DNA of 64,000 nucleotides, taken from Scleropages formosus. Taxonomy: Eukaryota. The translations under genes and the position numbers were made by a program. Under the pieces are notes generated by a model. That model was not told the origin of the DNA, searched no databases, and saw only the letters and a list, made by a program, of their open reading frames with translations. The stretch is taken from contig NC_041806.1 in assembly GCF_900964775.1 (NCBI RefSeq), positions 16,582,297-16,646,296 of the forward strand. The letters run 5' to 3'. The first letter of the stretch is position 1; each line of letters starts with the position of its first letter. Below, piece after piece: positions 1 to 23,120 of the stretch.

Positions 1-880
1 CTTTTTCCCCCGCCATCGAATCCAACTCACCACCAGGTGGTGATCAGTTGACAGCTCAGCCCCTCTCTTCACCCGAGTGTCCAAGACATATGGCCGAAGG
101 TCAGAAGAAACGACTACAAAGTCGATCATCGACCTCCGACCTAGGGTGTCCTGGTGCCAAGTGCACTGGTGGACACCCTTATGCATGAACATGGTGTTCG
201 TTATGGATAAACCGCGACTAGCACAGAAATCCAATAACAACTCACCGCTCGGGTTCAGATCAGGGAGGCCGTTCCTCCCAATCACGCCCCTCCAGGTATC
301 ACTGTCGCTGCCCACGTGGGCGTTAAAGTCCCCCAGTAGAACGACAGAGTCCCCAGTGGGAGCGCTTTCCAGCACGCCCCCCAGGGACTCTAAAAAGGCC
401 GGGTACTCTACACTGCCGCTAGGCGCATAAGCACAAACGACAGTGAGAGACCGTTCCCTGACCCGAAGGCGTAGGGAGATGACCCTCTCATTCACCGGGG
501 TAGACTCCAACACATGGCGGCTGAACTGGGGGGCTATTAATAAGCCCACACCAGCCCGCCGCCTCTCACCTTGGGCAACGCCAGAATAGTGGAGAGTCCA
601 CCCTCGATCGAGCAGAGTGGTTCCAGAACCCAAGCTGTGAGTGGAAGTGAGCCCGACTATATCTAGACGGTATCTCTCAACTTCCCGCACCAGCTCAGGC
701 TCCTTCCCCGCCAGTGAGGTGACATTCCAAGTCCCAAAAACCAGAGTTGGCGCCCGAGGTTCGGGTCGGCCGGGCACTCGGCCCCGACCACCGCCCAAAT
801 CACAACGCACCGGCCCCTTATGGTTTCTCCGGCAGGTGGTGAGCCCACCGAAGAGAGAATTACATAAAAATGTATTCCAA
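1..880 (-). mobile_element. Non-LTR retrotransposon fragment (CR1/L2/Rex-like apurinic endonuclease region), degenerate, cut by the window edge
   Basis: Reverse-complement translation of about 1-420 gives [111 protein letters not shown]. This is the canonical APE-type EN of CR1/L2-clade LINEs. Stop codons and frameshifts are present. The RT part would lie left of position 1. Confidence 0.6.
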
Positions 881-1041
881 ACATGCATATATTAACATCT
901 CTCTATAGTTTGGAGCCTGTTTCAAACTTGAAATAATTTATGACATTCTGAATCTTACTCCATAATTCTTCTTCACATGTGAAAATTTGTTTCTGGTTAT
1001 TTTCCATTCCTGACAGATTTTTTCTTACAAACTGTTCAAAA

Positions 1042-1167
1042 ATGGATCACAGACTGATATTTGCTATGACCTTGGTTGCCGGATTTTTAATACTGGAAGG
1101 AGGGACAGCCACAATCTCAACATCCGGTAACGCTACTTTCAACACATTTGATGTGCAGCCTCTCGCT
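1042..1167 (+). CDS. DOMON-repeat gene exon 1 (start codon, signal peptide)
   Basis: ATG at 1042. Encodes MDHRLIFAMTLVAGFLILEGGTATISTSGNATFNTFDVQPLA, with a hydrophobic signal-peptide-like N-terminus. The donor GTAAGT at 1168 has the same exon end ...QPL(A/T)|gtaagt as the module D exons. Confidence 0.6.
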
Positions 1168-1768
1168 GTAAGTATTGCACTTGCACGACACGTGGTATTT
1201 TCTCGGAAATAATTAATACAGACTCCGCCTGACTGCTTTCATTCACCTGTTGGTATCAATCAATTAGAATCTGAATGAGTTTTACTGGCCAGTGTGCTGA
1301 GGCACACAAGGTATTTCCTCTGGTTCTAGGTGCCTCCAATATTTACAGACAGACAGACAAACAAACAGCTGACAGAAAAAAAATTTAACTGGTTGGAAAA
1401 TGGGACTAAAAACAGGACAAATAAACAAAAAACAACAAAAGTACTGGAGGGCACCGCACTGAGGCAGCCATGTGTGGCGCCATCTTGATATATTCCGAGT
1501 TAGTAAATGGATGGTTGAAATACAGAAGCATACAGAAGTGCGCGAGTGAAGTAGCTCACACAGTCCGTGTTGTGAACCGAGAATGGTGTCACCTTCTCTT
1601 GTAACGACCTCTTTGCTATTCTGTTGCTAAATATTTTAATTAGTGTGAATTGCTGGTGTAACTCACTTCATGATGCAACTTTACAATTCTGTCTGAAATT
1701 GGTGCATAGATGATAGTAACATTAATGGTGAAGGTCGTGAATGTGTGTTGTGTTGATGTGGCCAACAG

Positions 1769-1960
1769 ACAAACATCACAAACGCAATGTGTGGACAGAG
1801 GAAGCTGTGTCTCACCATACCCACCTCCTGTGACCCAGCAGGCAGTGCACCATGTCTGTTTGCCTCCGCATCCATCTCATCGCAAGGAAACCTATTTTTT
1901 GAGCTCAGAGGGATTTCCAATGTGTACATTGTTCTGGGACTGAGCTCAGACAGCTCACTG
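1769..1960 (+). CDS. DOMON module 1 exon A (192 nt)
   Basis: Acceptor cag|ACAAAC, donor |gtaatc. Encodes TNITNAMCGQRKLCLTIPTSCDPAGSAPCLFASASISSQGNLFFELRGISNVYIVLGLSSDSSL. Confidence 0.75.
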
Positions 1961-2156
1961 GTAATCTCCATACTGCATTCCACACCTCACTCACACCTGC
2001 TTCCAGAAAAAGTACAGTTTCAAACTGTTGATGTTTAGTGGCAACGAGTCAGTATCAGATTTAGGGGACAATATACTATTTCCAGAATCATCTGTTCTTC
2101 ATTTGTGCCCTGAGACTTCAACCACTGTAGTTGTGATGGAATCTCTCCATCTAGAT

Positions 2157-3378
2157 CAGAGGTGTCAAACTCAAGGCCCGCCCCCTCATTTTATGCGGCC
2201 CGTGAGAGCTTACAAATTATTTTATTGTTATTATAAATTTTATTTTCGGGACCTGAAAATGCATCTCAGTTTCATTGCCTGCGCGATGAAGGCATCTAGT
2301 CAGTAGACGGCAATGTCTGGATATCTGTTTTATCCTGCAGCGGCGTTCTAGAAGGAGTGATAGGATTAGTAAAAAAAATACGAATAGACCCATCATGTCG
2401 AAGAAAAGAAAAGTTGATGCAAATGTATAAGTAATGATTTTTTCTTAATTTCATGAATTAAGGTAGTTTAGAATGTCACAGAGAAATCTGAGCGTGTGCT
2501 CACATCCAGCACAAGCATGTGTTTTTGTTACCTCATTTATTTTTTAAATAAACTGTACAATAGCTGTACACTTGAATACACTTTATCATTATATTTGTCC
2601 TGGGCTTCTACTTTCAAAGTTAGGTATTAATTGAGTTATTACCACAACCAGTAGTAATTGAATGCAGAGGTAATTATGTAATGTAATAAAAGAGTAGATA
2701 CATCAGAATCAGAATCAGAACGAGCTTTATTGCCAAGTATGTTCACACATACAAGGAATTTGTCTTGATGACAGAAACTTCCACAGCACAGACAGAATGA
2801 CAGTGACAAGACGCAGATGAGAAGATAGAATATATGAATAAAGGATAAAAAATGTATTAAAAAATAAAAAGTACACAATATACAAAAATAGTCACTAGAC
2901 ATTATATGTATGTACAGATATGTTCTATACAAATGCAAGGGAATGTAAGACATATGATGTGATAAATCGATAAAATTATAAATATAAATAGCATTGTGTA
3001 TTGCACTGGTTTACTCTCTAGGTGGGAATTGGCTGTTCATGAGGTAGATGGCCTGAGGAAAGAAACTTTTCTTGTGCCTGGCTGTCCTGGTGCTCAGCGC
3101 TCTCTAGCACTGGTCAGATGGCAAAGGTTCGAAGAGGAAGTGGCCTGGATGTGAGGGGTCTAGAATGATTTTGCTAGCCTTTTTACTGACTCTGGACAAG
3201 TACAGTTCTTGGAGAGCTGGGGGGTGTGCCGATGATTCTTCCAGCAGTCCGAACTATCTGCTGTAATCTTCTGATGTCTGATTTCGTACATTCATATAGT
3301 CTTCCAGTTACAACCGGCCCTTTAAGAGCAACCATAATGCTGATGCAGCCTGGGATGAAACTGAGTTTGACACCCCTG
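2157..3378. mobile_element. Non-autonomous TIR element (hAT-like MITE) inserted in intron A1-B1 of the DOMON gene; internal part carries a nested LINE 3' fragment
   Basis: Termini are CAGAGGTGTCAAACTCAAG on the left and the inverse ACTGAGTTTGACACCCCTG on the right. The flanking 8-mers atctagat and gtctagtt are an imperfect TSD. The element is absent from the paralogous intron of modules 2 and 3 (...ccatctagatgctgggatcc...). Confidence 0.45.
2690..3290 (-). mobile_element. 5'-truncated copy (3' end about 600 bp) of the same LINE family as 18303-21731
   Basis: Reverse complement matches the LINE ORF C-terminus (..QQIVRTAGRIIG..AIYLMNT*) and the 3' UTR ending in (GATTCT)n: tcagaatcagaatcagaacgagctttattgccaag. 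Confidence 0.6.
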
Positions 3379-3433
3379 GTCTAGTTGTATATTTAAATTC
3401 CTAACGCCTTTGTATTCTGTTTTTTCTATTCAG

Positions 3434-3520
3434 CAAAATGGTTTCATGTTTGCCTGTGGTCAAATGAATGGCAATGCGTCCTTTCTATACACAAATAATT
3501 CACTGAACCCAAATTACCAG
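3434..3520 (+). CDS. DOMON module 1 exon B (87 nt)
   Basis: Acceptor ttctattcag|CAAAATGG, donor |gtaaga. Encodes QNGFMFACGQMNGNASFLYTNNSLNPNYQ. Phase 0. Confidence 0.7.
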
Positions 3521-3788
3521 GTAAGATGGTACAACTTTTTGAGATCATTACAATTAAAGACACAAAACAGCACTGTAAAGAACTGGATACTGAATTTTTA
3601 TTCAGCTGTAAACCAGCTAAAATAAACTGGTATAAGGATATAGATTGATAAGTAATCATCTTGAATTCTACAGCATAACTTTCTCCTAAATGATGGTCTC
3701 TGTAAAATTCTGTAGACCAAGAGTTTAAGTTGTCATGGTATGTGGTGAAGCCTCTCTGATATATCATGACATTTTCATCTGTTTTCAG

Positions 3789-3936
3789 TACCAAGTGGTC
3801 TCAGCTTCGGGATCAGTGAGTGGGAATGTCCTTCAGTGCACCTTCCAAGTTTCTGGCCTCACTTCCTCGATCCTGAATTTTTTTACTCAGATCAACAACT
3901 TGTACGTCTTCCTTGCTACTGGCAACATCATCAATG
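3789..3936 (+). CDS. DOMON module 1 exon C (148 nt)
   Basis: Acceptor ttttcag|TACCAAG, donor G|gtaaag. Encodes YQVVSASGSVSGNVLQCTFQVSGLTSSILNFFTQINNLYVFLATGNIING. Ends in phase 1. Confidence 0.75.
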
Positions 3937-4122
3937 GTAAAGATTCACACAGTTGGTGAACGTTCACCATCTACTTTCTACACACTACTGAGCGAAACAC
4001 CGAGAAAGCAGCTCAACTGCTCTCTTCATGCTGCACAGCAAAAGAGTGATTGTTCCTAAATAAGTAATTCAAGCGCAATTAATTGTTCCTAAAACTATTC
4101 TAATGTGTAATTTATTTTGCAG

Positions 4123-4247
4123 GAATGTCACAATCATCTGCCGTTCAGTTGTTCAACACAAGCTCCATTGGCCTAATTAATATGGCCAACTTAATCACAT
4201 TCTTCAACAACCTGCTTTATGTTCCCATTTCCACGCAGCCTCTGACT
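4123..4247 (+). CDS. DOMON module 1 exon D (125 nt)
   Basis: Acceptor ttttgcag|GAATG, donor ACT|gtaagt. Encodes (G)MSQSSAVQLFNTSSIGLINMANLITFFNNLLYVPISTQPLT. Confidence 0.7.
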
Positions 4248-4700
4248 GTAAGTACACATGGAGACTAATTACTTATGTTCTCTGGATGTTAATATGTAGT
4301 TGCCATCACTGTCTTTAATTGACTTTGAGTGTTACTACCTGTATTTTTCTCTTGTTAAATGTTTGAACCAGTGTGAGATACTGCTAGTCCTAGTTTGTGA
4401 AGCTGTATGCCAGGACTCTTCATCTGATACCTGTGGACCAAATCCTTTTTCATCCAGTCCTTTAGTTGATTTTTTACATTAAAAATTAAAAAGCTATTAT
4501 GTCTGCAAAAAAAAAAAAACTTATTGGTCAAGTGGTCAGCTGAGATCTACTCATTTTATTATTCATTCCGTATTATTGGGGGTATTTTCTGTTCTCTTGA
4601 AATGAACCGTGATTGGAACAAATTTTAAGTATGATTACAAAGATATAAGAAAGACAACATACCAAGAGCATGGCATTCCAGCCTATTGTTACACAATTAA

Positions 4701-4912
4701 GGGGGTGCGGTGGCGCAGTGGGTTGGACTGCAGTCCTACTCTCCGGTGGGTCTGGGGTTCGAGTCCCGCTTGGGGTGCCTTGCGACGGACTGGCGTCCCG
4801 TCCTGGGTGTGTCCCCTCCCCCTCCAGCCTTGCGCCCTGTGTTGCCGGGTTAGGCTCCGGTTCCCCGTGACCCCCTATGGGACAAGCGGTTCTGAAAATG
4901 TGTGTGTGTGTG
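4701..4912 (+). mobile_element. tRNA-derived SINE, family 1 ((GT)n-tailed)
   Basis: Consensus-like GGGGTGCGGTGGCGCAGTGGGTTGGAC...GGGTTCGAGTCCCGC...(GT)n. TSD TTACACAATTA(A/C) flanks it. The paralogous site near 7857 is empty. Confidence 0.8.
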
Positions 4913-5280
4913 TTACACAATTACAAGTCACCCCAAGCACATTTTTCAAGATAGTTTTGTGTGTGTGATTCATATCACTTCAAATATCACCATTAATGTT
5001 AGTAAACACCCTTTGACACACAGTATTATATTTAGTGTAACTTTAAATGCTCACACACAAGTGCAGAGATTTGAGAATTACTCTGAAAATGTTTGGTCCT
5101 CCCTTCATTTTATATGTAATAATCTGCCCCTCATGAGAAAGTGGTTAAAGAACTCTGCTGTATGCTATTTAGACAAACAAAACATGGAGGATCATCGACT
5201 TACAAGTTAACACCTCAAACTGGAACAGTAACAATAATGGTGATGGTTCTGAAAATTTGTTGTGATCATGTGGTCCATAG

Positions 5281-5472
5281 GCAAGCATCACAAATGCAAC
5301 GTGTGGACAGAAGAAGCTGTGTCTCTCCACACCCACCTCCTGTGACCCAGCAGGCAGTGCATCATGTCTGTTTGCCTCCGCATCCATGTCATGGCAAGGA
5401 AACCTGGTTTTTGAGCTCAGAGGGAATTCCAGTGGGTACATTGCACTGGGACTAAGTACAGTAAACCCAACG
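5281..5472 (+). CDS. DOMON module 2 exon A (192 nt)
   Basis: Encodes ASITNATCGQKKLCLSTPTSCDPAGSASCLFASASMSWQGNLVFELRGNSSGYIALGLSTVNPT. Acceptor ccatag|, donor |gtaatc. Confidence 0.75.
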
Positions 5473-5915
5473 GTAATCTCCATACTGCATCCCATCCCTC
5501 ACTCACACCTGCTTCCAGAAAAAGCACAGTTGAAAACTGTTGATGTTTAGTGGCAACAAGTCAGTATCAGATTTAGGTGACAATGTACTATTTGCAGAAT
5601 CATCTGTTCTTCATTTGTGCCCTGAGTCTTCAACCACTGTAGTTGTGATGGAATCTCTCCATCTAGATGCTGGGATCCTTTTCTTTATTTTCCTGCTTTC
5701 ACTTACTGAGAGTATCCTGACATTAGGGTCAATGAACTATTTGCGCACTTTCTACACTGTCACCAGGCAACTGTTTACATTCATTACCTTTGTGTTTATA
5801 AGATTTGGTACACTGTAGTTATTATTATACTTGCTGACAACTAACTCCTTTGTTTATTTTGATTTTTAATTTCGATGTTTTCATTTTTTTTTTTTTTTTT
5901 TTTTATCATTTCCAG

Positions 5916-6011
5916 CTAAATTCCGTTGTGTTTGCCTGCGCACAGCAAAATGGCAGCATCTTTTTGCACACCTTCCTGCTCAAAGACAGTATTCTTTCCA
6001 ACTTCACCTCT
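5916..6011 (+). CDS. DOMON module 2 exon B (96 nt)
   Basis: Encodes LNSVVFACAQQNGSIFLHTFLLKDSILSNFTS. Polypyrimidine tract (T)n precedes acceptor tttccag|. Donor |gtgagt. Confidence 0.75.
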
Positions 6012-6294
6012 GTGAGTTTTACTATTCATTGTTTTTACACCTCACTCCATTTGGTAATACAAGACACTGTTGTAGAGTGAAAAACTGGGAATTACATGAA
6101 TTGTGATTTTTAAAGCAGTGTTACAAAGGTCTGTTTTTGTTTTTTTTCAATATAACAGTATTGAACTCCATTGTATAACTATACTGTACTGGGTTACCGT
6201 CTGTACGCTGTTAGAGGAATTTAGGCTTTATTTTGGTGTTTTGTGAAGTGGTGGTGGTCTGTGGTGACGTCAGTGGATTTCCATCTGCTTTCAG

Positions 6295-6442
6295 TACCCA
6301 GTGGTCTCAGCTTTGGGATCAGTGAGTGGGAATGTCATCCAGTGCACCATCCAAGTTTCTGGCCTCAATTCTGTGATCTTGAATTCTGTAACTCAGACCA
6401 AAAACTTGTACAGCTTCCTCGCTACTGGAAGCATCACCAACG
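6295..6442 (+). CDS. DOMON module 2 exon C (148 nt)
   Basis: Encodes YPVVSALGSVSGNVIQCTIQVSGLNSVILNSVTQTKNLYSFLATGSITNG. Donor G|gtaaag. Confidence 0.75.
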
Positions 6443-6594
6443 GTAAAGATTCACACAACTGGAGAAAGTTCACCATATACTTTCTATACACTACTGAGCG
6501 AAACACTGAGAAAGCAGCTCAACTGCTCTCTTCATGCTGCTCAGCAAAAGAGTAACTGTTCCTAAAACTATTTCCATTTATAATTTGTTTACAG

Positions 6595-6719
6595 GAATAC
6601 CAGGCCTTCCTGTCGTTCAGTTGGTCAACACAGATTTCTTTGGCCTAATGAATATGGCCAACTTCATCACCTTCTTCAACAACCTGCTTTATGCTCCCAT
6701 GGCCACACAGCCTCTGACT
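6595..6719 (+). CDS. DOMON module 2 exon D (125 nt)
   Basis: Encodes (G)IPGLPVVQLVNTDFFGLMNMANFITFFNNLLYAPMATQPLT. Donor |gtaagt. Confidence 0.75.
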
Positions 6720-6821
6720 GTAAGTACACATGGAGACAGTACACATCTGAGTTACTGTTCTCTGGATGTTAATATGTAGTTGCCATCACTGTCTTTAATT
6801 GACTTTGAGTGTTACTACGTG

Positions 6822-7029
6822 GAGAGGGGGCGCGGTGGCGCAGTGGGTTGGACCGCAGTCCTGCTCTCCGGTGGGTCTGGGGTTCGAGTCCCGCTTGGGG
6901 TGCCTTGCGATGGACTGGCGTCCCGTCCTGGGTTTGTCCCCTCCCCCCTCCGGCCTTGCGCCCTGTGTTGCCGGGTAGGCTCCGTGACCCCGTATGGGAC
7001 AAGCGGTTCTGAAGATGTGTGTGTGTGTG
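6822..7029 (+). mobile_element. tRNA-derived SINE, family 1
   Basis: 12-bp TSD TGTTACTACGTG lies at 6810-6821 and 7030-7041. The paralogous site in module 1 (near 4325, gagtgttactacctgtattttt) is empty. Confidence 0.85.
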
Positions 7030-7529
7030 TGTTACTACGTGTATTTTTCTCTTGTTAAATGTTTGAACCAGTGTGAGATACTGCTAGTCCTAGTTTGTGA
7101 AGCTGTATGCCAGGACTCTTCAGCTGGCACCTATGAACCAAACCATTTTCTTATCCAATCCTTTAGTTGATTTTTAACACTAAAAACTAAAAAGCTATTT
7201 TGTCCAAAAAAAAAAACAAAAAATGCTCTTCTTGTGAAAAATGCACCCACTCCAAATTCCTCAAACAGGAAATGGCTGTTACTTTTAGCCCCACCCACAT
7301 ACTGTCAGATTTTGATTGGATGCTTCTGACTTTCATGACTTTGTTATGAGATCCTGTATTAATCACTCTCTTTGAAAGTTAGTAAATGCAGTTTTGCTTG
7401 TTAGAAGAGAAAGAGGACCCTGGTTGTTAGATGTGTACCTTACATAAACTATATAATCAGAAATAAAGAAAAATCATGAAGGTCACCTGAGATCCACACA
7501 TTTTGTTATTCATTCTATATTCCTGCAGA

Positions 7530-7743
7530 GGGGGTGCGGTGGCGCAGTGGGTTGGACCGCAGTCCTGCTCTCGGGTGGGTCTGGGGTTCGAGTCCCGCTT
7601 GGGGTGCCTTGTGGCGGACTGGCGTCCCGTCCTGGGTGTGTCCCCTCCCCCTCCAGCCTTACGCCCTGTGTTGCCGAGTTAGGCTCCGGTTCCCCGTGAC
7701 CCCGTATGGGACAAGCGGCTCTGAAGGTGTGTGTGTGTGTGTG
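7530..7743 (+). mobile_element. tRNA-derived SINE, family 1
   Basis: 12-bp TSD TATTCCTGCAGA lies at 7518-7529 and 7744-7755. (GT)n tail. Confidence 0.85.
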
Positions 7744-8226
7744 TATTCCTGCAGATATTTTCTGTTCTCTTAAAATGAACCGTGATTGAAGCAAGTCATG
7801 AGTAAGATTCCAAAGATGTAACGAAGGCATCATATCAAGGGCATGGCATTCCAGCCTATTGTTACACAATTACAATCCAACCCCCAGTACATTTTTCAAG
7901 ATAGTTTGTGTGTGTGATTCATATCAATTCAAATATCACCATTAATGTTAGTAAACACCCTTTGACACAGTACTATGTTTAGTGTTACTTTTTATGCTCA
8001 CATGTAAGTGCAGAGATTTGAGAATTACTCTGAAAATGTTTGGTCCTCCCTTCATTTTATATGTAATAATTTGCCCCTCATGAGAAAGTAGTTAATGAAC
8101 CCTGCTCTATGCTGTCTAGACAAACAAAACATGGAGGATCATCGACTTACAAGTAACACCTCAAACTGGAACAGTAGCAATAATGGTGATGGTTCTGAAA
8201 ATTTGTTGTGATCATGTGGTTCATAG

Positions 8227-8418
8227 GCAAGCATCACAAATGCAACGTGTGGACAGAAGAAGCTGTGTCTCTCCACACCCACCTCCTGTGACCCAGCAGG
8301 CAGTGCATCATGTCTGTTTGCCTCCGCATCCATGTCATGGCAAGGAAACCTGGTTTTTGAGCTCAGAGGGAATTCCAGTGGGTACATTGCACTGGGACTG
8401 AGTACAGCAAACCTAACG
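8227..8418 (+). CDS. DOMON module 3 exon A (192 nt)
   Basis: Near-identical to module 2 exon A, with the same flanking intron sequence. Confidence 0.75.
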
Positions 8419-8831
8419 GTAATCTCCATACTGCATTCCACACCTCACTCACACCTGCTCCCAGAAAAAGTAGTTGAAAACTGCTGATGTGACAATATAC
8501 TATTTCCAGAATCATCTGTTCTTCATTTGTGCCCTGAGACTTCAACCACTGTAGTTGTGATGAAATCTCTCCATCTAGATGCTGGGATCCTCTTCTTTAT
8601 TTCCCTTCAGCTTTTTGTGAACCCTGCTTCCATTAACTGAGTGTATCGTAACATTAGGGTCAATTAACTATTTGTATACTTTCTACATTGTCACCAGGCA
8701 ACTGTTTACATGCATTACTTGTGTTGATAGGATTTAATACATTGCAGTTATTAGAATGCTCAGTAATTGCAAACTCTTTTATTTATTTTGAATTTTAATT
8801 TTAATGTTCTTCATTTGTTTATCATTTCCAG

Positions 8832-8927
8832 CAAAATTCCATTGTGCTTGCCTGCGCACAGCAAAATGGCAGCATCTTCGTGTACACCTTCCAGCTCATT
8901 GACAATATTCTGTACCAGTCCACCTTT
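8832..8927 (+). CDS. DOMON module 3 exon B (96 nt)
   Basis: Encodes QNSIVLACAQQNGSIFVYTFQLIDNILYQSTF. Donor |gtgagt. Confidence 0.75.
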
Positions 8928-9077
8928 GTGAGTTTTTACTGTTACTTGTTTTTCCACCCGACTCCGTTTAGCAATACAAGACACTGTTGCAGAGTGTTAT
9001 ATGAGCAGTCATTTATAAAGCAGACTGTTACATAGGTCTGATTTTTTCTTTTAAATTTAACTGTGTTGAACCTGGGG

Positions 9078-9295
9078 GGGCTTGGTTGCACAGCGGCTTT
9101 GGCCCGTGTCTGCTCTCTCGTGGGTCTGGGGTTCGAGTCCTGCTTGGGGTGCCGTGTGACGGACTGGCATCCCGTCCTGGGTGTGTCCCCTCCCCCTCCA
9201 GCGTTACCCCCTGTGTTGCCGGGTTAGGCTCCGGCTCGCTGCGACCCCGCTCGGGACAATCAGTTTCAGTCAATGTGTGTGTGCGTGTGTGTGAG
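9078..9295 (+). mobile_element. tRNA-derived SINE, family 1 (diverged copy)
   Basis: Same architecture with several substitutions. Lies in intron B3-C3. The paralogous introns near 6150 and 10800 lack it. Confidence 0.7.
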
Positions 9296-9406
9296 TATTG
9301 AACTTTGTAGTATAACTTTACTGTACTGGGTTACAGTCTGTACACTGGTAAAGGCAATGAGACTTTATTGTGGTGGTGACATCAATGGATTTCCATCTGT
9401 TTTCAG

Positions 9407-9554
9407 AACCCAGTGGTCTCAGCTTCGGGATCAGTGAGTGGGAATGTCATTCAGTGCACCTTCCAAGTTCCTGGTCTGAATTACGTAATCTTGAATTCTG
9501 TAACTCAAGCCAAAAACTTGTCCGTCTTCCTTGCTACTGGCAGCATCACCAACG
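9407..9554 (+). CDS. DOMON module 3 exon C (148 nt)
   Basis: Encodes NPVVSASGSVSGNVIQCTFQVPGLNYVILNSVTQAKNLSVFLATGSITNG. Confidence 0.75.
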
Positions 9555-9686
9555 GTAAAGATTCACACAACCATTTACTTTCTATACACTACTGACACTG
9601 AGAAAGCAGCTCAACTGCCCTCTTCATGCTGCTCGGCAAAAGAGTAACTGTTTCTAAAACTATTTTCATTTATAATTTATTTACAG

Positions 9687-9811
9687 GAATGCCAGGCCTT
9701 CCTGCCGTTCAGTTGGTCAACACAGATTTCGTTGGCCTAATGAATATGGTCAACTTCATCACCTTCTTCAACAACCTGCTTTATGTTCCCATGGCCACAC
9801 AGTCTCTGACT
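9687..9811 (+). CDS. DOMON module 3 exon D (125 nt)
   Basis: Encodes (G)MPGLPAVQLVNTDFVGLMNMVNFITFFNNLLYVPMATQSLT. Donor |gtacgt. Confidence 0.7.
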
Positions 9812-10114
9812 GTACGTACACATGGAGACAGTGAACATATGAGTCACTAGGAAACTGAACAGACTCTGATTACTTGTTTCTGTCCTCTGGATGTTAATGT
9901 GTAGTTGCCATCAATGTCTTTTACTGACTTTGAGTGTTATTTCTATATCTCTTTTCTTAAATGTTTTAAGCAGTGTGAGATACTGCTAGATTGTGAAGTT
10001 GTACGCTGCTGAGACAAAAAAAAGCCTGAAGTATTTCCAAGTGACACCTGAAACTAGTGCACTTATGACAGTAACAGTGATGATGAAGGTTCTTAATGTA
10101 TGTTATGATTACAG

Positions 10115-10315
10115 ACAAGCATCACTCGCACAACCTGTGGGAACAGCAAGCTGTGTGTGGCAACACCAGTATTATGCAACCCAGCAGGCAGTACTCCGTG
10201 TCTGTTTGCCTCCATCACCAACACTTCCTCACTACAGAACACCAATGTCACTATAGAACTTCGAGGGGATTCTAGTGGCTACGTTGCAGTAGGAGGGAGC
10301 TTAACACAATCAACG
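10115..10315 (+). CDS. DOMON module 4 exon A (201 nt)
   Basis: Encodes TSITRTTCGNSKLCVATPVLCNPAGSTPCLFASITNTSSLQNTNVTIELRGDSSGYVAVGGSLTQST. Three codons longer than other A exons. Donor |gtaaca. Confidence 0.7.
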
Positions 10316-10557
10316 GTAACATCTGCACCATGTACACCCTACTTTTATTTACTTACATTAATTTACTTACATATATTTACTTACTTATATCCTTACATTA
10401 TGGTTAATGAACTGTTTGTTCAGTATTTACACTCTCTCCAGGCTTTGCATTTATAGGTTTCAATACACTCTAGTTATAATAATGCTCAGTTACTACTATA
10501 TCTTGTCTTAAATCTCAATTTGAATTTTGATGTTCTTCATTTGTTTATCATTTCCAG

Positions 10558-10653
10558 CAAAATTCCATTGTGTATGCCTGTGCACAGCAAAATGGCAGCA
10601 TCTTCGTGTACACCTTCCAGTCCATTGACAATATTCTGTACCAGTCCACCTTA
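10558..10653 (+). CDS. DOMON module 4 exon B (96 nt)
   Basis: Encodes QNSIVYACAQQNGSIFVYTFQSIDNILYQSTL. Confidence 0.7.
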
Positions 10654-10934
10654 GTGAGTTTTTACTGTTAATTAGTTTTTCCACCTCTGTCTGTTTGATA
10701 ATACAGACACTGTCATAGAGTGTAGAACTGGGAATTACATGAACAGTGATTTATAAACCACACTGTTGCATAGGTCTGTTTTTTAATTTAAATATAACAC
10801 TGTTGAACTTTGTGGTATAACTTTACTGTACTGGGTTACAGTCTGTAGACTGTTAAAGGCAATGAGGCTTTATTTTGGTGTTGTGAAGTGGTGGTGGGCT
10901 GTGGTGACATCAATGGATTTCCATCTACTTTCAG

Positions 10935-11082
10935 TACCCAGTGCTCTCTGCTTTGGGATCAGTGAGTGGGAATGTCATTCAGTGCACTTTCCAAGTTTAT
11001 GGCCTCAGTTCCTTGGTTCTGGGTTCTGGTCATCAGATCAGAGACCTGTATGCCTTCCTTGCTAATGGCAGCATCACCAACG
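10935..11082 (+). CDS. DOMON module 4 exon C (148 nt)
   Basis: Encodes YPVLSALGSVSGNVIQCTFQVYGLSSLVLGSGHQIRDLYAFLANGSITNG. Confidence 0.7.
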
Positions 11083-11252
11083 GTAAAAATCACGCAATTG
11101 ATGAGAGTTCACCAATACAAGTTTTTGCCACATACTGTAGTGCTGAACCAAACACAGTGAATTCAGCACTTTATAACATTCATCCTGAACTGAATCTTGT
11201 GTACTTTTCTTATGAATAAGTTAATGAATAGCATGATTGATCTTGTTCCCAG

Positions 11253-11338
11253 GAATACTGCAAGCTCCTGTCATTCAGTTGTCACCTACGTCACTCAACA
11301 GTAACAGTGTCATCCCCATTCCTACACTACCTCTCACA
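11253..11338 (+). CDS. DOMON module 4 exon D (86 nt, shortened)
   Basis: Encodes (G)ILQAPVIQLSPTSLNSNSVIPIPTLPLT. Donor ACA|gtaagg. Keeps phase 2-in/0-out like other D exons. Confidence 0.6.
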
Positions 11339-11609
11339 GTAAGGATAAGTGTATTGCTCCTTGGGAAATAACTAATGCAGTCTCACATTGTTGTTTTGTC
11401 CTCATTTTTGATCAACCTAGAATTGAAACAGACACAAAAATTGTCTAGAGATGAACTACTGCAGAATCAGGGAAATTACCTTGGACATGGGTTCAACAGC
11501 AGGAGTGGGATTTGAACTGTATACATGAAATAGATGCTGAAATTGGGGAAATGAAGACATCAATAACGGTGAAGATTTTTAATTTGTGTTATCATGATGT
11601 TGAAAACAG

Positions 11610-11801
11610 ACAAGTATCACTAGCACAAACTGTGGGAAGACCAAGCTGTGTCTGAGGACACCAAATGGCTGTAACCCAGCAGGCAGTAGTGAGTGCTTGT
11701 TTGCCTCCTCCGCCACCTCATCCCAAGGAATCATGACTTTTGAGCTCCGAGGACAGTCTAATGGGTACATTGCGTTGGGACTCAGCACAGCCAACACAAC
11801 G
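11610..11801 (+). CDS. DOMON module 5 exon A (192 nt)
   Basis: Encodes TSITSTNCGKTKLCLRTPNGCNPAGSSECLFASSATSSQGIMTFELRGQSNGYIALGLSTANTT. Confidence 0.7.
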
Positions 11802-12006
11802 GTAACTATACATCATACAGCACCATACAGAGGCTCCAGTGACAGAAATATAGTCAACAGATACTTCTGCTTTGTTATGTAACTGGTGATTTTTCCTTGT
11901 ATGCTAAAAAACCTTTGATATCCTCATTATTAATTCTCTAATCTTAAATATTTGCATATTTTGCTTTAGCAGCTAACCTTTGTGTTGTCTTTGTTTGTAT
12001 TTTTAG

Positions 12007-12102
12007 CAATATGCCATCATGTTTGCCTGTGCACAGCTAAGTGGCACTGTCTCCCTGTTCAGCACCAAGCTCATAAACAGTTCAGTGATCCAGGACAGTT
12101 CA
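12007..12102 (+). CDS. DOMON module 5 exon B (96 nt)
   Basis: Encodes QYAIMFACAQLSGTVSLFSTKLINSSVIQDSS. Donor |gtgagt. Confidence 0.7.
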
Positions 12103-12735
12103 GTGAGTGTTTTCATTGTTTTTTATGCAAATTCTGTTACATTCCTTTGCTGCATTTTGCCTCAATTATAATATATTGCCTATTAGGCTGACTGTTACTT
12201 GCAGCATAGCTTGACCTGCATGGCAGTCTCTGTAGCCTGTGAGCTCAGAAGTAATGAGATGAATTTGCATGGTTGTTAGCCTGTGGTGACCCATTCTGTG
12301 GGAACCACAAGCCTGGGACTGTGGGATTTCCTTTTACCTGTCCTTTCACACACCTTTTTGGTGTCATATGTGCTTTGAATGTGCTGGCAGTTAGGAGGAA
12401 TACTGTGTACTGCAAGGACAGGAACTTTTTGTGAAAGTTTGCTTGCAGGATGTTTTGAGGAACAGCGTGGAGGACCTGAAGGTCTGGCCCAGAGTCTGCA
12501 AGACCTAAATTCACCAAGGCCACCTTGGGCCTCTGAGAAAGAGGAATATGAATAGTGTGTTGTGGTAGTAGTGTGTGAGACTTGTGTCATTCAGATTTGG
12601 AGGGTTACACCTATGAAGAAAAAACCAACTCTAAACTCTTTGTCCTTGTATGGCATTGAGAACCAGGATTCCATGCCACAAATAAACACCTGAATCCAGC
12701 AGCAGTGAAGCTTGTCTGTTCCCCATCTGTTTCAG

Positions 12736-12883
12736 ATCAGTGTGGACAACATTCAGGGGACGCAGAATGGAAATGTTATTCGGTGCACTTTTAATACTGC
12801 TGGCCTCAGTTCCACAGCCTCAAAGATTCGTGCACTAAATACCACCTTTTTTGTCTTCCTTGCTACCGGAGATGTCAACAATG
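12736..12883 (+). CDS. DOMON module 5 exon C (148 nt)
   Basis: Encodes ISVDNIQGTQNGNVIRCTFNTAGLSSTASKIRALNTTFFVFLATGDVNNG. Confidence 0.7.
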
Positions 12884-13018
12884 GTAAAAAAAAAAAAATT
12901 GCTTTGCATACCAGCTGTTGAAGTGTATATTTACAAACAGCTCACTTTATGGTGTTTGCCAAAACCACCAAATTACCAAAAATATCAGACTTTGTAAAAT
13001 TGTAATTTTTCTCCCCAG

Positions 13019-13123
13019 GAACACTGCAAGCTCCAGTCATTAAGTTGCAACCTGTCTTGGTTGACCTGGCAAATGCCACTGTTAACTTATTTTCAAGCAG
13101 CCCACCCATTCACTCCTATTCAG
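13019..13123 (+). CDS. DOMON module 5 exon D variant (105 nt)
   Basis: Encodes (G)TLQAPVIKLQPVLVDLANATVNLFSSSPPIHSYS. Donor G|gtaacc. Ends in phase 1. Confidence 0.55.
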
Positions 13124-13293
13124 GTAACCAGTTCAAAAAATCTTGCAAAAAAAGTGATATTCTGAAATGCTGCCAGTTACTGTTCTTATATATTTCTTTC
13201 ATCACTTTTTCACTTAAGATGATATTACTTCCAATTTTCCAGTGTGTATCAGGAAAATATAGTTAAATTAATTTGTTTTTGCTTTATTTCCAG

Positions 13294-13337
13294 CTTTGCT
13301 AATCCTACTTAGTGTGGTGCCCTTCCAGCTGTTTTGA
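13294..13337 (+). CDS. DOMON-repeat gene terminal exon (hydrophobic C-terminal tail plus stop)
   Basis: Acceptor tatttccag|. Completes the codon from the previous exon and encodes ALLILLSVVPFQLF followed by TGA at 13335-13337. Small residues (SYSA) followed by a short hydrophobic tail resemble a GPI-attachment signal. AATAAA-like signals follow, for example around 13600. Confidence 0.5.
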
Positions 13338-14592
13338 GGAAAATCTAAATCAATCAGGTCAAGAAGACAGAGGGTGGTCGATGTGTTGTCAACCTTTCCA
13401 ATGCTCAGAAGATTGACATATATAAAAGCTCTCTATCATCTAATATTAAAATTACTCACTAATGTGACTATAAAATCACCTACTCTGTGTGTGTGTGTGT
13501 GAGTGACAAAGTGTGTTTCACTTAAAGATGAAGTTGTAAGACTTATTGTAAGTTCGAGGAACAATTCACTGAGTACAAAAAGTGATGAAATCATTAAATA
13601 CTATACAGTATAATAAAAGATAACCTTTATTACCTTTGCGAACCAGAATCATGAAGTGGGTATCTGTGAAAGTCCTTTTCTGCTTTTTCATATGGTGGTG
13701 TTTTCTTATCCCAACACTGAAATTAATTAAATGTATCCTTTGGAATTTGTGTCTGTTAATATAATAATAAAAGGTTTGGAATGAATTAAAATTCTGGTGA
13801 GAAATTTTTTTCTACACAGAATCAAAACTACGTTTTCCATTAATTTTGTTTCCAAAGAATGTCTTTAAGAAGCTTGAATATTTGCATGATAATATCTGAA
13901 AGGAGCAAAGGTGTCAGAAGCACCATCTGGGTCTCAGTTAGATTCTGCCACTTTAGCCATGGGAACTTCACTACTAGTAATATTTTAGTAGTAGTATTTT
14001 GAGCTGAATTGAAGCATCAGCTAAATGAATAAAAATCATGAGAAAACCAAAGTGACAGCACCACTTCTAGAGAGTGAGCTTGAGCACCACTTAAAAGAGC
14101 GATTCTTTTTATTTTGAATAACAACACATAAAACAATAGAAACACAAGTGTACATAGCATTTCTAAAAACATATCAGAAAGCATGATCGGGATACACAGT
14201 ACAAATACACATCATAAAAAGGTTAAACTAAATAAAGACAAAGTACATGCTGCTTTCATATTTTGACATTTTGAAGAAGTTTGCAAATATCTCTTTAAAT
14301 GTATTTTTAAGTCTTCAAATGTAGGACTCTTCCCTGAACCTTTTACTTTACCTTTTAAAGTCCAAAATGAGGAATTCCAGTATACTGTAACTGCGAGGAT
14401 ATTTTCAACTTGGAATATGGATCTTAAAGATTTTTTCTTACATCCATAGTTTAAATATTCTTTCCTTGCAGTCTGATATGAACTACAAATTTTTAAAACA
14501 TTTCTAATAGACAGCTATTGCCATTCTTTAGAATTGATATTTCCTTAGGAATCACATTCATTATGACAACATTGAACAGAATTAATAAAAAT

Positions 14593-18796: not shown

Positions 18797-21428
18797 GTGC
18801 TGCCTAGTATCCATCTGGCGAACCTCCGCTCCTTACCCAACAAAATGGACGAACTTTTCCTCCTGTCCCAAAGAAACAAGGACTTCTTAAATTCTGCTGC
18901 TCTGTGTTTCACGGAAACCTGGCTGAATGAAGCCATCCCGGACAGCGCGCTACATCTGCCGGGCTTCCAGCTGTTCAGAGCGGATCGCGGCGGGGAAATC
19001 ACGTGGCGGTGGGACATGCTTCTACATCAACGAAAGGTGGCGTACAGATGTAACAGCGTTGAAGAAGATGTGCTGTCCCGACCTAGAAGCGCTCTTCATC
19101 AACTGCAAGCCTTTCTACTCGCCGCGGGAGTTTTCCTCGTTCATCCTCGTAAGTGTTTACATTCCACCCCAAGCGTGCATGAACGCAGCGCTGCAACAGC
19201 TGGGCGACCAGATCACTGACACAGAGCAACAACACTCGGACTCTGTTATAATTATTCTCGGGGACTTTAATAAAGCAAATCTCTCCCGTGAACTGCCAAA
19301 ATACAGACAGCATATTACATGTCCCACCAGAGACAGTAATATTTTGGACCACTGCTACACCACAGTAAAGGATGCATATCACTCTGTTCCACGGACAGCT
19401 TTGGGGCTCTCTGATCACTGTCTGGTTCATCTTGTACTGACCTACAGGCAAAAACTGAAATCAGCTAAACCTGTAATAAGGACTGTTAAAAGATGGACTG
19501 GGGAAGCAGAGCAGGACTTACAAGCCTGCTTCGAGTGCACCGATTGGAGTGTCTTTGAGGCTGCTGCTAGCGATCTAGATGAGCTCACAGACTCTGTAGC
19601 ATCATATGTCAGTTTCTGCGAGGATATGTGCATCCCTACCAGGACTCGTTTAACATACAACAATGACAAACCGTGGTTCACTGCAAAACTCAGACAGCTT
19701 CGTCAGGCCAAAGAAGACGCCTACAAGAACGGGGACGGAGTCTTGTATAAACAGGCCAAAAACACACTGGCAAAGGAGATCAGAGTGGCTAAGAGAAACT
19801 ACTCTGAAAAGCTGAAGAAACAGTTTTCAGCCAACGATCCTGCATCAGTGTGGAAAGACCTGAAAGACATCACAAATTACAAGACACCACCCCCCGGCAC
19901 CGTGTCAACTCAACAACTAGCCGACGATTTGAATGAGTTTTATTGTAGGTTTGATAAACCCTGTCTCACACCCCACACCCATTCAGACCCTCTCTCCACA
20001 AATCGATTAACACCTCCAGTAACCCCCACCTCCCCCCCTCCTGCACCTTTGATCTGCGAACAGGAGGTGCGTCGGGTCTTCGTCAAACAGAAGACAAGGA
20101 AAGCACCAGGCCCAGACGGTGTCTCACCGGCCTGCCTAAAAACCTGTGCTGACCAGCTGGCCCCTATCTTCACAAAGATCTTCAACAGATCACTGGAGAT
20201 GTGTGAAGTTCCTTCCTGCTTCAAACACTCCACCATCATCCCCATCCCAAAGAAACCCAAAATCACAGGACTTAATGACTACAGACCTGTCGCCCTAACG
20301 TCTGTGGTCATGAAGTCACTTGAAAAACTGGTGTTGGACTACCTGAAAGACATCACTGGACCCTTGCTGGACCCCCTGCAGTTTGCTTACCGAGCAAACA
20401 GGTCTGTGGATGATGCAGTCAACATGGGACTGCACTACATTCTGCAACATCTGGACAAACCAGGGACTTATGCAAGAATCCTGTTCGTGGACTTCAGCTC
20501 AGCCTTCAACACCATCATCCCACACCTCCTCCTGTCCAAATTAACCCAACTCTCTATGCCCACCTCCATCTGTCAGTGGATCACCAACTTTCTGACAGAC
20601 AGGCAGCAGATAGTGAGGCTGGGAAAATTCTCATCCAATACTCGCACAATCAGTACTGGAGCCCCCCAGGGATGTGTGCTCTCCCCACTGCTCTTCTCCC
20701 TGTACACCAACGACTGCACCGCAAAAGACCCCTCTGTCAAACTCCTGAAGTTTGCAGACGACACCACACTCATCGGCCTCATCCGGGATGGTGATGAGTC
20801 TGCTTACAGACAGGAGGTCCAAGAGCTGGCTGTCTGGTGCAGTCATAACAACCTGGAGCTGAACACGCTCAAAACAGTGGAGATGATCGTGGACTTCAGG
20901 AGAAACACCTCAGCATTATCCTCACTTACCATCATGAACAGCACTGTGGCAACAGTGGAGTCATTCAGGTTCCTGGGCACCACCATCTCACAGGACCTGA
21001 AGTGGGAGCCCCACATAGACTCCATTGTGAAGAAGGCCCAGCAGAGGTTGTACTTCCTTCGCCAGCTGAGGAAGTTCAACCTGCCACAGGAGCTACTGAT
21101 GCAATTCTACTCCGCAGTCATTGAGTCCGTCCTCTGCACCTCTATAACTGTCTGGTTTGGCTCAGCTACGAAGTCAGACATCAGAAGACTGCAGCAGATA
21201 GTTCGGACTGCTGGAAGAATCATCGGCACATCCCCCCCAGCTCTCCAAGACCTGCACTCGTCCAGAGTCAGTAAAAGGGCTAGCAAAATCATTCTAGACC
21301 CCTCACATCCAGGCCACTTCCTTTTCGAACCCTTGCCATCTGGCCGGCTCTACAGAGCACTGAGCACCAGGACAGCCAGGCATAAGAAAAGTTTCTTTCC
21401 TCAGGCCATCTACCTCATGAACACCTAA
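18797..21428 (+). pseudogene. LINE ORF2 (endonuclease plus reverse transcriptase), one frameshift
   Basis: ORFs 18797-19219 and 18927-21428 overlap in different frames. Together they give about 877 aa of EN-RT. Confidence 0.7.
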
Positions 21429-21734
21429 ATCTCTCCCCTAGAGAGTAAACCAGTGCAATACATAATGCTATTTATATTTATAACTATTTATCACATCATA
21501 TCTCTTACTCACACTCCCTTGCATTTGTATCTAGTGACTATTTTTGTATATTGGGTACTTTATATTTTTAAATATTTTTTTATCCCTTGTTCACATACTC
21601 TATCTTCTCACCTGTCTTGTCACTGTCATTCTGTCTGTGCTGTGGTAGTTCCTGTCACCAAGACAAATTCCTTGTATGTGTGAACAAACTTGGCAATAAA
21701 GCTCGTTCTGATTCTGATTCTGATTCTGAATTAC

Positions 21735-22671
21735 GGGAACTGAGAGACGGTTACATTTGAAGGCTCCACTCACTTGGGCTTGGATCTTACTGGGCAGTCG
21801 ACACAGAGATGTCTGGGTCCCCGCAGTAGAGACACAGGCAGCTCCGTAGTCTCCGCTGTCGTTCCTCCATGGTTAATCGGCCATGTGCTAACCATATGGG
21901 TTCAGGCTTCATCTGTTGCATGTCACTGTACTGGGCTTCGTACTGGATTCGCAATCCCGGGCAAGGTTGTCTATGGTGAAGGCAGTCTGGATAAACTGAT
22001 CAAGCGTCCATTTCTCTCCCCGGAACACCAGCTCCTTTCTCAATCTTGGGTTCAGACTGCACCAGAAACAGGCCAGTAGGGCTTTCGGACCCCAACCACT
22101 GCATGCGGCCAGGATCCAGAAATCCACCGCATACTCTGCCGCAGAACGGTCCCCTTGCCTCAGGTGGAAGAGACGCTCCTCAGTATCCTGAGCAGCGGAG
22201 GGGACCCCAAACATGGCCATGAAGCAGGCTTTGAAATCTTTATATGTACACTGGGAGCAACTCTCCCAGATGGCTGTGGCCCAATCCAACGTGCGCCCGC
22301 TCAGAAGAGAGATCAGGTATGAAATCCGGTTCTGATCAGAGCGATATAAATGGGGCTGACTTGAAAAGACAAGCTTGCACTGCATCAAAAAGCCTGCACA
22401 CTTGGAGGGTGTTCCATTGTACCTTATCAGCGCTGCAAGCCAAGGGTAATGTTCAGGTGGTGGTGATGACGCAGTGGCAGCTGCGCGGGCTAAAACAGGC
22501 GGCGCAAGCTTGCCTGGAGTTCTTAGCACATCTACCAGGTCGTTGTAGGAAGAGACGAGGTGGTGGAGCGTCTGTTCCAACTTGTCTAGGTGCGCTTCAT
22601 GGGAATCCAGTTCTGCCTGCAGCTGGTTCAGCTCCGCTGGGTCTGTAGTGCAGGCGGAACCTTCTGTCATG
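21735..22671 (-). CDS. gag of chromovirus A (CCHC zinc-knuckle region near the LINE junction)
   Basis: [25 protein letters not shown]...[10 protein letters not shown]. Homologous to the gag ORFs of copies B and C. Confidence 0.65.
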
Positions 22672-23081
22672 ATGTCCCCCCGGCGCGGAAGCGTTGGACC
22701 CAAGTGCGGAGCACAGGAAGTGGAGTCAAGGGGCGATCCAGTAGACCTGGTCAGGAAAACAGGCAAAAGGGTCACCGATCTTAGAACAGAATCCGAAGGG
22801 CAAATCCGAAAGTCGTTGTCCAAGAAAACAGGCGAGAAGTCATGGCAAACCAGGAAGTCGTAACCGAGGAGCAGGACAACGAGGAGCAGGACGACAAGGA
22901 GCAGGACGACAAGGAGCAGGACAAGGAAACAGGGAGGTCAGGAGATCGGTAACAAGAAGCGCGAGTGAGAGGCTAGGCTGAACAAGGTTCCGCAACTTCT
23001 TGCAGTCCGGGCTGTCCTTTTATGTGCCCAGACCCTGATCAGCTGCAGGTGTTGCTTGTTACAGAGGTGGAGGGCATGACA
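22666..23081 (-). repeat. 5' LTR of chromovirus A
   Basis: Pairs with 14593-14994. Contains short GAGCAGGACGA repeats in the U3-like part. Confidence 0.75.
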
Positions 23082-23116
23082 AAAAATATTATATCTATTA
23101 ACAAAGCTGATTATAT

Positions 23117-23120
<4 letters not shown>

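Follow-up and report, generated by a model that had tools for sequence, protein, structure and literature searches.

The window, a 64,000-nt stretch of Scleropages formosus DNA, holds the gene LOC108937868. Its 22-exon, 971-aa model forms a single ORF, is identical to RefSeq XP_018613577.2, and contains a signal peptide, five four-exon DOMON modules (M1 to M5), and a hydrophobic tail. All splice sites of the modules are GT-AG. Both ends of each module fall in intron phase 0, which lets an entire block be copied or skipped without loss of the reading frame. With the Pfam gathering cut-off (32.7 bits) as the threshold for calling DOMON, the protein matches PF03351 at 77.7 bits (E=1e-21) in four stretches, and six cysteines are conserved in each module; Pfam reports neither a Reeler nor a cytochrome b561 domain. 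We predict a secreted, heavily N-glycosylated, five-DOMON product that is probably GPI-anchored. The paralogue LOC108937867 was searched for in the window and is absent from it. Exon 1 and the 3' part of the gene are as follows.

1042-1167, plus strand: exon 1, with the start codon and signal peptide (model identical to XP_018613577.2)
10115-11338, plus strand: module 4, exons A 10115-10315, B 10558-10653, C 10935-11082, D 11253-11338 (splice sites, segment identities)
11610-13337, plus strand: module 5 exons, 11610-11801, 12007-12102, 12736-12883, 13019-13123, and the last exon
13294-13337, plus strand: last exon, carrying the stop codon and encoding a hydrophobic tail that resembles a GPI signal

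The 5' two-thirds of the gene is a tandem-repeat region. A tandem unit of 2.9-3.5 kb with alignable introns recurs here through about 2.6 periods, which hold modules 1 to 3 (1715-10006); the copies lie head to tail in one orientation, at offsets of 3512 and 2946 nt by self-BLAST. The periods were delimited by self-BLAST, segment identities, and splice sites.

1715-5226, plus strand: period 1, module 1 and its intron D; exons A 1769-1960, B 3434-3520, C 3789-3936, D 4123-4247
5227-8172, plus strand: period 2, module 2 and its intron D; exons A 5281-5472, B 5916-6011, C 6295-6442, D 6595-6719
8173-10006, plus strand: period 3, module 3, cut off within intron D; exons A 8227-8418, B 8832-8927, C 9407-9554, D 9687-9811
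7221-7480, no strand assigned: stretch of about 260 nt in M2 intron D with no M1 counterpart (indel), single copy in the window

Homology among M1 to M3 continues through the introns, with introns A, C, and D 85-95% identical. About 1 kb of intron D is homologous between periods, of which about 590 nt is present only at the two internal junctions, and neither beside M4 or M5 nor upstream of M1. Exon D of M1 to M3 has in common a derived insertion of 13 residues, which neither M4 and M5 nor any of the paralogue's three modules possesses. The preliminary description had named mechanical ORFs at 2028-2306 and 5540-5818 as shared non-coding sequence; both exist, but they are homologous over the first 129 nt only, past which the M1 ORF enters a TIR element, so that their equal length is coincidental.

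Five insertions, four SINEs and one TIR element, are each confined to one module, and the four SINEs have both target-site duplications (TSDs) and empty sister sites.

4700-4912, plus strand: SINE in M1 intron D only, with A-box, B-box, and (TG)n tail; TSD TTACACAATTA; empty site M2 7872/7873
6822-7030, plus strand: SINE in M2 intron D only; TSD GTTACTACGTG; empty sites M1 4341/4342 and M3 about 9946
7530-7743, plus strand: SINE in M2 intron D only; TSD TATTCCTGCAGA; a more diverged empty site in M1
9074-9296, plus strand: SINE of an older subfamily in M3 intron B only; TSD GTTGAACCT/ATTGAACTT (7/9); empty sites in M2 and M4
2157-3378, no strand assigned: non-autonomous TIR element in M1 only; TIR CAGAGGTGTCAAACTCA/CAGGGGTGTCAAACTCA (16/17); 8-bp flanks ATCTAGAT/GTCTAGTT (6/8)

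The filled and empty sites quoted earlier for the SINE at 6822-7030 agree with its TSD and with the M1 empty site. As expected of SINEs, these sequences combine internal A and B boxes, TSDs, and many dispersed copies (15 in the 64 kb); the pol III boxes TGGCGCAGTGG and GGTTCGAGTCC can be read directly. ARAGORN and Rfam searches of positions 1-14000 found no tRNA and no other RNA family, so a tRNA origin of the SINE heads is suggested by the two boxes only. Measured against consensus sequences built from just 4-7 copies, all from the window, the SINEs at 4700, 6822, and 7530 lie 2.7%, 2.8%, and 3.2% from the young-subfamily consensus, and the SINE at 9074, with its degraded TSD, about 11% from a rough older-subfamily consensus. 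The TIR element is possibly hAT-like, judging from its CAGAGGTG-type terminus; short TIRs and 8-bp TSDs mark the hAT superfamily. The element carries a nested repeat at 2702-3288 with a second copy at 21167-21724 on the minus strand (86%). A deletion adjacent to the TIR element was considered, but the 6/8 TSD match (chance about 0.004) favours simple insertion. With the TEs stripped, intron lengths are alike in all modules except intron D of M1 and M2 and intron A of M2 and M3.

How similar are the three copies? Identities were taken from pairwise and per-segment alignments with TEs stripped; a three-way MAFFT alignment that kept the TEs was too fragmented. M2 and M3 are 92.5% identical in exons and 87.9% in introns, and M1 and M2, over homologous spans, 84.7% in exons and 89.5% in introns. 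The expectation that introns be more alike than exons is therefore borne out for M1-M2 and reversed for M2-M3. Homologous introns among the three are about 88-90% identical, with K2P distances over homologous spans of 0.114 (M1-M2), 0.112 (M1-M3), and 0.133 (M2-M3); M2-M3 dS is 0.090. The description of the modules as almost identical is not sustained by these values (introns 87.9-89.6%, exons 84.7-92.5%), the less so as one part of M1 is unalignable, giving 49-54% identity and no HSP against M2, M3, or M4.

3379-3770, plus strand: M1 segment without detectable DNA homology to M2-M4, made up of exon B1, intron B1, and the 47 nt of intron A that precede them

The nearest relative of exon B1 is M5, at 61%. 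Recent conversion of this exon from the neighbouring paralogue was considered and rejected, as tblastn of P0003 against exon B1 gave no match at E<1e-3. Among M1 to M3, dN/dS is about 0.6-1.1, close to neutral drift; between M1 and M2 or M3, dN (0.17) exceeds intron divergence (0.11).

Could the repeat have been falsely expanded or collapsed during assembly? No evidence in favour of this was found. False duplications are near-identical, whereas M1 to M3 are set apart by differences at 8-20% of sites, five distinct TEs, and several indels. Moreover, the spliced ORF is intact through all copies, and the M3-M4-M5 series recurs in an independent RefSeq protein of earlier date. We consider an assembly artefact scarcely credible.

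Module 4 had been called much more diverged, which is correct for exon A, intron C, and exon D (56-65% identical to M2/M3) and incorrect for exon B (79-94%), intron B (86-87%), and exon C (78-81%), which are as near to M2/M3 as M1 to M3 are to one another. Judged by these identities, module 4 is M2/M3-like between exon B and exon C and appears old elsewhere. A similar patchwork runs through the repeat itself, where identity is uneven along the units (chi-square p=1e-7 for M2-M3, p=2e-6 for M1-M2). Two tracts stand out.

5276-5453, plus strand: 178-nt run of perfect identity over exon A of M2, equal to M3 8222-8399 (permutation test)
8742-9437, plus strand: M3 tract nearer to M4 (10468-10965) than to M2 (segment identities, site patterns)

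Against a background identity of 89.5%, none of 5000 permutations gave a run as long as the 178 nt (p<0.0002). A second perfect run spans 83 nt (p=0.0014). The 178-nt block probably stems from a recent conversion. For exon B of M3, identity is 94% to M4 and 83% to M2. In exon A, 67 site patterns join M2 with M3 and 2 join M3 with M4; in exon B, 15 join M3 with M4 (34|2) and 5 join M2 with M3 (23|4). Over-long identity runs and a nearest relative that depends on the segment are both marks of gene conversion, and both are present. On this evidence from the DNA, modules 1 to 3 are a mosaic on which gene conversion appears to have acted after duplication. The mosaic character of the repeat had escaped the preliminary description. 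A single unequal crossover between M1 and M4 was considered as the source of chimeric M2 and M3; it explains the switch at exon C but predicts an exon A resembling that of M4, whereas the exon A observed resembles that of M1, which calls for one or more further exchanges.

Are all five modules then ancient, with M1 to M3 homogenized by continuing conversion and no duplication in the arowana lineage? Such a history would account for the mosaic identity, the conflicting trees, and the significant identity runs, as well as for an exon B and intron B in M1 as diverged as those of an ancient module; the homology of M1 also breaks exactly at the edge of the TIR element, whose left TSD copy matches M2/M3 perfectly. 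The intron D homology, with its junction-only portion, is better explained by copying of the junction. Furthermore, the three intron distances are nearly equal (0.11-0.13), and the derived exon D insertion is confined to M1 to M3. We regard this history as unlikely. The unalignable exon B region of M1 and the break at the TIR element edge are features that a simple triplication does not explain.

How old is the repeat? A dS of 0.253 on the Asian-arowana branch and a split at 106.1 Mya have been reported (PMC7586111). Dividing the dS by about 106 Myr, a calculation that is ours and not that of the source, gives about 2.4e-9 per site per year, a genome-average synonymous rate that we applied to introns. 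At this rate, the divergence among M1 to M3 would correspond to roughly 17-28 Myr, and that of introns alone to about 24-28 Myr. Conversion wipes out divergence, so that each such age is the time since the last exchange rather than since duplication, and a repeat shaped in this way has no single date. The TEs set a minimum age, not a maximum, and the decay of the SINEs (about 3% in the three young copies, about 11% in M3) argues for age, not youth.

The duplication had been described as very recent, with a copy number that is probably polymorphic or lineage-specific. Alignable introns, private TEs with clean empty sites, and the 178-nt identical stretch might be taken to suggest a recent event, still polymorphic in the population, as might three Ensembl protein models that each lack exactly one period. 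However, intron K2P, M2-M3 dS, and SINE decay all contradict extreme youth: about 1 intron base in 8-10 differs between copies, the private SINEs are 3-11% decayed with one TSD reduced to 7/9, and the identical stretch is a short patch in surroundings of 89.5% identity. In the modules that they keep, the Ensembl models agree exactly with the window, and they appear to reflect in-frame skipping or a choice of annotation within one assembly rather than different alleles. Heterozygosity in S. formosus has been reported as 2-4.5e-3 (PMC8247217). The divergence among M1 to M3 is 25-60 times this value and so gives no reason to expect copy-number polymorphism. The older RefSeq protein version shows the same order (end of M2, M3, M4, M5), and at two residues in exon B of M3 it carries the M4 state. 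A very recent, still polymorphic duplication is therefore highly improbable, and the three-copy repeat is expected, from its divergence, to be fixed in the species. The suggestion that the copy number is lineage-specific fares better: an exhaustive HMM search found 1-23 DOMON modules across 516 relatives, and dS among M1 to M3 is less than twice the Asian-arowana branch dS, which together make a lineage-specific expansion plausible.

We favour, at a probability of about 0.78, an old three-copy duplication of DOMON modules that was later patched by conversion and by separate TE insertions. That the duplication is intragenic, in tandem, and younger than M4 and M5, with copy-specific insertions following, had been proposed at the outset and is upheld here; alignable introns and private TEs mark it as younger than its neighbouring modules, not as recent. 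A few tens of millions of years ago, a block of about 2.1-2.7 kb would have given rise to three head-to-tail copies, most likely through one duplication followed by unequal crossing-over. Each copy would then have received its private transposons, and non-reciprocal exchange would have overwritten patches, for example exon A in the M2/M3 pair, a portion of intron D in M1/M2, and the surroundings of exon B in M3/M4, so that segments differ in their ages and trees. Change in the coding sequence would have been close to neutral.

Intragenic tandem duplication of phase-symmetrical exon blocks is a general class in repeat-domain genes. LOC108937868 shares its head-to-tail units, phase 0 boundaries, intact ORF, and introns copied along with the exons, and differs in nothing essential, its units being partly chimeric between neighbours. 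Kringle IV type 2 of LPA is a multi-exon intragenic VNTR with nearly identical units and a highly polymorphic unit number. The likeness lies in a tandem unit of several kb, exons and introns included, with one protein domain per unit; the M1 to M3 units, however, lack such near-identity at the intron and exon identities given above, being 80-98% identical with private TEs, and comparison of protein versions gave no evidence of polymorphism. Long identity runs, uneven divergence, and trees that change by segment recall concerted evolution by conversion, but homogenization here is patchy and weak, most of the unit having diverged by 10-13%, which points to occasional conversion. The repeat is ordinary growth of a repeat-domain gene; it holds nothing surprising to a specialist and touches no open question. 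It can serve as a worked example of a phase-0 module, duplication, unequal exchange, patchy conversion, and TE accretion.

Are the modules still exchanging sequence? The two RefSeq versions differ at two residues, L483Y and L499S, each a two-base change toward the M4 state. It is possible, though doubtful, that these mark a segregating M4-to-M3 conversion tract, that the 178-nt block is another, and that the TIR element edge in M1 acted as a hard stop for a tract, in a modular epithelial surface protein diversifying by shuffling between modules. If so, ongoing exchange, together with the high dN of M1, would make module shuffling a source of surface-protein variation.

LOC108937868 belongs to an uncharacterized teleost DOMON family, and the practical value of this analysis is mostly corrective. 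A profile search of a word-indexed protein collection returned three distant matches only. Exact protein look-ups of this gene, its older version, and its paralogue returned no DNA entry from other assemblies. P0045, a relative in Arapaima gigas, sits on a contig of 4.4 kb that bears a single terminal module; this module is most similar to the paralogue's module 3, and it says nothing about copy number. Relatives of LOC108937868 are named si:cabz01007794.1 or 'putative ferric-chelate reductase 1'; such si:cabz01007794.1-type and FRRS1-like teleost proteins share the DOMON module PF03351, and LOC108937868 differs from FRRS1-like proteins in having no Pfam-reported Reeler or cytochrome b561. Identity to relatives outside the arowanas is about 28-33%, too low to establish orthology. 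Zebrafish si:cabz01007794.1 has been reported in enveloping-layer cells and in foregut and cloacal epithelium (10.1101/2020.12.13.422569; PMC9854193).

Modules 1 to 3 of LOC108937868, an uncharacterised DOMON gene of the arowana, arose by an intragenic triplication that is real but of an ordinary kind. The event is old, not very recent, and its products were altered by patchwise gene conversion and by transposon insertions private to single copies. Protein search identifies the window as vertebrate DNA, from Scleropages formosus (Asian arowana). A 22-exon plus-strand gene model was put together by eye and each splice site was then checked; all are GT-AG, and the single 971-aa open frame yields a product identical to XP_018613577.2 (RefSeq "uncharacterized protein LOC108937868"). 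Between a signal-peptide exon and a hydrophobic-tail exon lie five modules (M1 to M5, numbered 5' to 3') of four exons each (A, B, C and D), with introns named after the preceding exon and intron D joining one module to the next:

1042-1167, plus strand, signal-peptide exon of LOC108937868
13294-13337, plus strand, last exon of LOC108937868, hydrophobic tail

The protein matches DOMON (PF03351) in Pfam with E=1e-21 and carries six cysteines in each module and 23 N-glycosylation sequons in all. Introns are in phase 0 at both ends of all five modules, so that the gain, loss or skipping of a whole module stays in frame. Directly upstream of exon 1, positions 1-840 form a GC-rich block (~58% by eye versus ~40% in the gene) that looks like a mobile-element fragment.

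How alike are the modules? Comparison of the window with itself reveals ~2.6 repeat periods across 1715-10006, at offsets of 3512 and 2946 nt. The homology continues through the introns; M1-M3 are therefore true tandem copies, as the preliminary description proposed. Its further statement that they are almost identical fails, since one base in 8 to 10 differs between copies. Identities were computed without TEs and without one TSD copy of each, over homologous spans only.

Identity and intron divergence among modules 1 to 3
M2-M3: exons 92.5%, introns 87.9%, intron K2P 0.133
M1-M2: exons 84.7%, introns 89.5%, intron K2P 0.114
M1-M3: exons 84.7%, introns 89.6%, intron K2P 0.112

Within M1, the ~390 nt at 3379-3770, covering the end of intron A together with exon B and intron B, cannot be aligned to M2/M3 (~50% identity). 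Both M4 and M5 had been considered much more diverged, which holds throughout for M5 but only in places for M4. In exon B, M4 matches M3 at 94%; in intron B and exon C it is 86-87% and 78-81% identical to M2/M3; in exons A and D and in intron C, identity falls to 56-65%. Intron A of M4 contains four copies of a 14-nt tandem repeat, ATTTACTTACATTA, at 10344-10400, which by eye appears to have grown from sequence still single-copy in M2/M3.

All five insertions listed in the preliminary description, four SINEs (one in M1, two in M2 and one in M3) and one element with terminal inverted repeats, are real, and each is confined to one module copy:

2157-3378, M1 only, 1222-bp element with terminal inverted repeats matching at 16/17 positions

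This element is itself broken by another repeat at 2702-3288. The open reading frames 2028-2306 and 5540-5818, presented as counterparts, have their first 129 nt in common, but the remainder is not homologous; beyond that point the M1 frame enters the inserted element. The SINE occurs 15 times in the window, four of them in the module repeat, and has pol III A-box and B-box motifs and a (TG)n tail; its head is not recognised as a tRNA by ARAGORN or Rfam. Empty sites are present in the sister modules, and the example originally offered (4341/4342 versus 6811-7041) is exact. Elsewhere, within 46830-47240, two SINE copies (46842-47027 and 47030-47228) lie directly head to tail.

Identity along the units is far more uneven than expected by chance (chi-square test, M2-M3: p=1e-7; M1-M2: p=2e-6). 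Over exon A, M2 and M3 have in common 178 consecutive identical bases (5276-5453 / 8222-8399) against a background identity of 89.5%, a run length matched by 0/5000 permutations, and intron D of M1 and M2 has a perfect 83-nt run (p=0.0014). Site-pattern counts show that the nearest relative of a module depends on the segment compared; for intron B, all three copies are about equally distant from one another.

Sites grouping M3 with M2 or with M4
Exon A: M2+M3, 67; M3+M4, 2
Exon B: M2+M3, 5; M3+M4, 15

From mid intron A up to where exon C starts, M2 and M3 resemble M4; downstream they resemble M1, and the switch is located around a 22-nt block identical in M1-M4. These mosaic identities and segment-wise relationships are signatures of non-reciprocal exchange among modules, after or during amplification. 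Homology of M1 to M2/M3 breaks off exactly where the inserted element begins on its left side (2156/2157), after 63 nt of 98% identity, and is picked up again 18 nt upstream of exon C. The left TSD copy of the element equals the M2/M3 sequence and the right copy differs at 2/8 positions. A conversion tract halted by the element would explain this break. Exon B and intron B of M1 look as old as M5.

How old is the triplication? The Asian-arowana branch has accumulated a dS of 0.253 since the Heterotis/Arapaima split ~106 Mya (PMC7586111), figures from which our own division gives a rate of ~2.4e-9 per site per year. At this rate, the M1-M3 intron divergence corresponds to ~24-28 Myr, the M2-M3 dS of 0.09 to ~19 Myr and the least diverged patch (exon A plus the upstream 100 nt, ~2%) to ~4 Myr, all of them times since last exchange because conversion acted between modules. 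The SINEs had been taken to date the duplication as very recent; their decay instead sets a minimum age. Three young copies are ~3% from a consensus built on seven window copies, and the M3 SINE is ~11% from a rough older-subfamily consensus, with its TSD decayed to 7/9. Neither this decay nor the intron divergence bears out a very recent event. Heterozygosity in S. formosus is 2-4.5e-3 (PMC8247217); divergence between units is 25-60 times higher and gives no reason to expect the copy-number polymorphism that had been suggested.

In our best reading, a phase-0 block of ~2.1-2.7 kb would have been duplicated, creating a junction that unequal crossing-over would then have copied to give three units. 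About 590 nt of intron D are common to both internal junctions and found nowhere else near the gene, which fits this order of events. Occasional conversion would then have overwritten patches of exon A between M2 and M3, of intron D between M1 and M2 and of the exon B region between M3 and M4. The coding sequence of M1-M3 evolved nearly neutrally, with a dN/dS of 0.61 between M2 and M3 and of ~1.1 for M1 versus M2/M3 in exons A, C and D, where dN (0.17) somewhat exceeds intron K (0.11) on counts too small for a claim of positive selection.

An exhaustive profile search detected 516 relatives of the protein at E <= 0.001; those looked up by name are all ray-finned fishes, teleosts nearly throughout. 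They have 1 to 23 modules (e.g., Echeneis naucrates XP_029382781.1, 4752 aa), so module amplification is habitual in this family. Lineage-specific copy number is thus plausible, and an arowana-lineage expansion likewise, given that dS among M1-M3 is less than twice that of the arowana branch. The sole osteoglossid relative found, from Arapaima gigas, lies on a 4.4-kb contig uninformative on copy number. An older RefSeq protein version (582 aa) begins in M2 exon D, has the same M3-M4-M5 series and shows just two residue differences from the window, L483Y and L499S, both in M3 exon B (8832-8927). By the window's nucleotides, both substitutions need two base changes and bring M3 closer to the M4 state; they could reflect a conversion tract that segregates as an allele, or modules confused during short-read assembly of the older version. 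Each of three Ensembl models is missing precisely one period but matches the window in all else; we read them as in-frame skipping or annotation choices. The neighbouring paralogue LOC108937867 (XP_018613576.1, outside the window) has three DOMON modules, of which modules 1 and 2 are identical across roughly their first 150 residues; on its protein sequence, it would be a much better candidate than LOC108937868 for a genuinely recent duplication or conversion within the gene.

Other elements in the window are:

18927-21428, LINE-type retrotransposon, intact 833-aa ORF with reverse-transcriptase and endonuclease-like domains
21909-29793 and 54708-59667, minus strand, Ty3/gypsy-type retrotransposon ORFs (gag, RNase H, integrase, chromodomain)
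39775-40578, 267-aa single-exon-like ORF with a strong Apolipoprotein L domain (Pfam PF05461, E=3e-38)

The last is probably a neighbouring host gene. The LINE-type ORF also matches Pfam ALKBH8_N, and 24294-24593 and 28862-29161 form a 300-nt direct repeat that is 98% identical.
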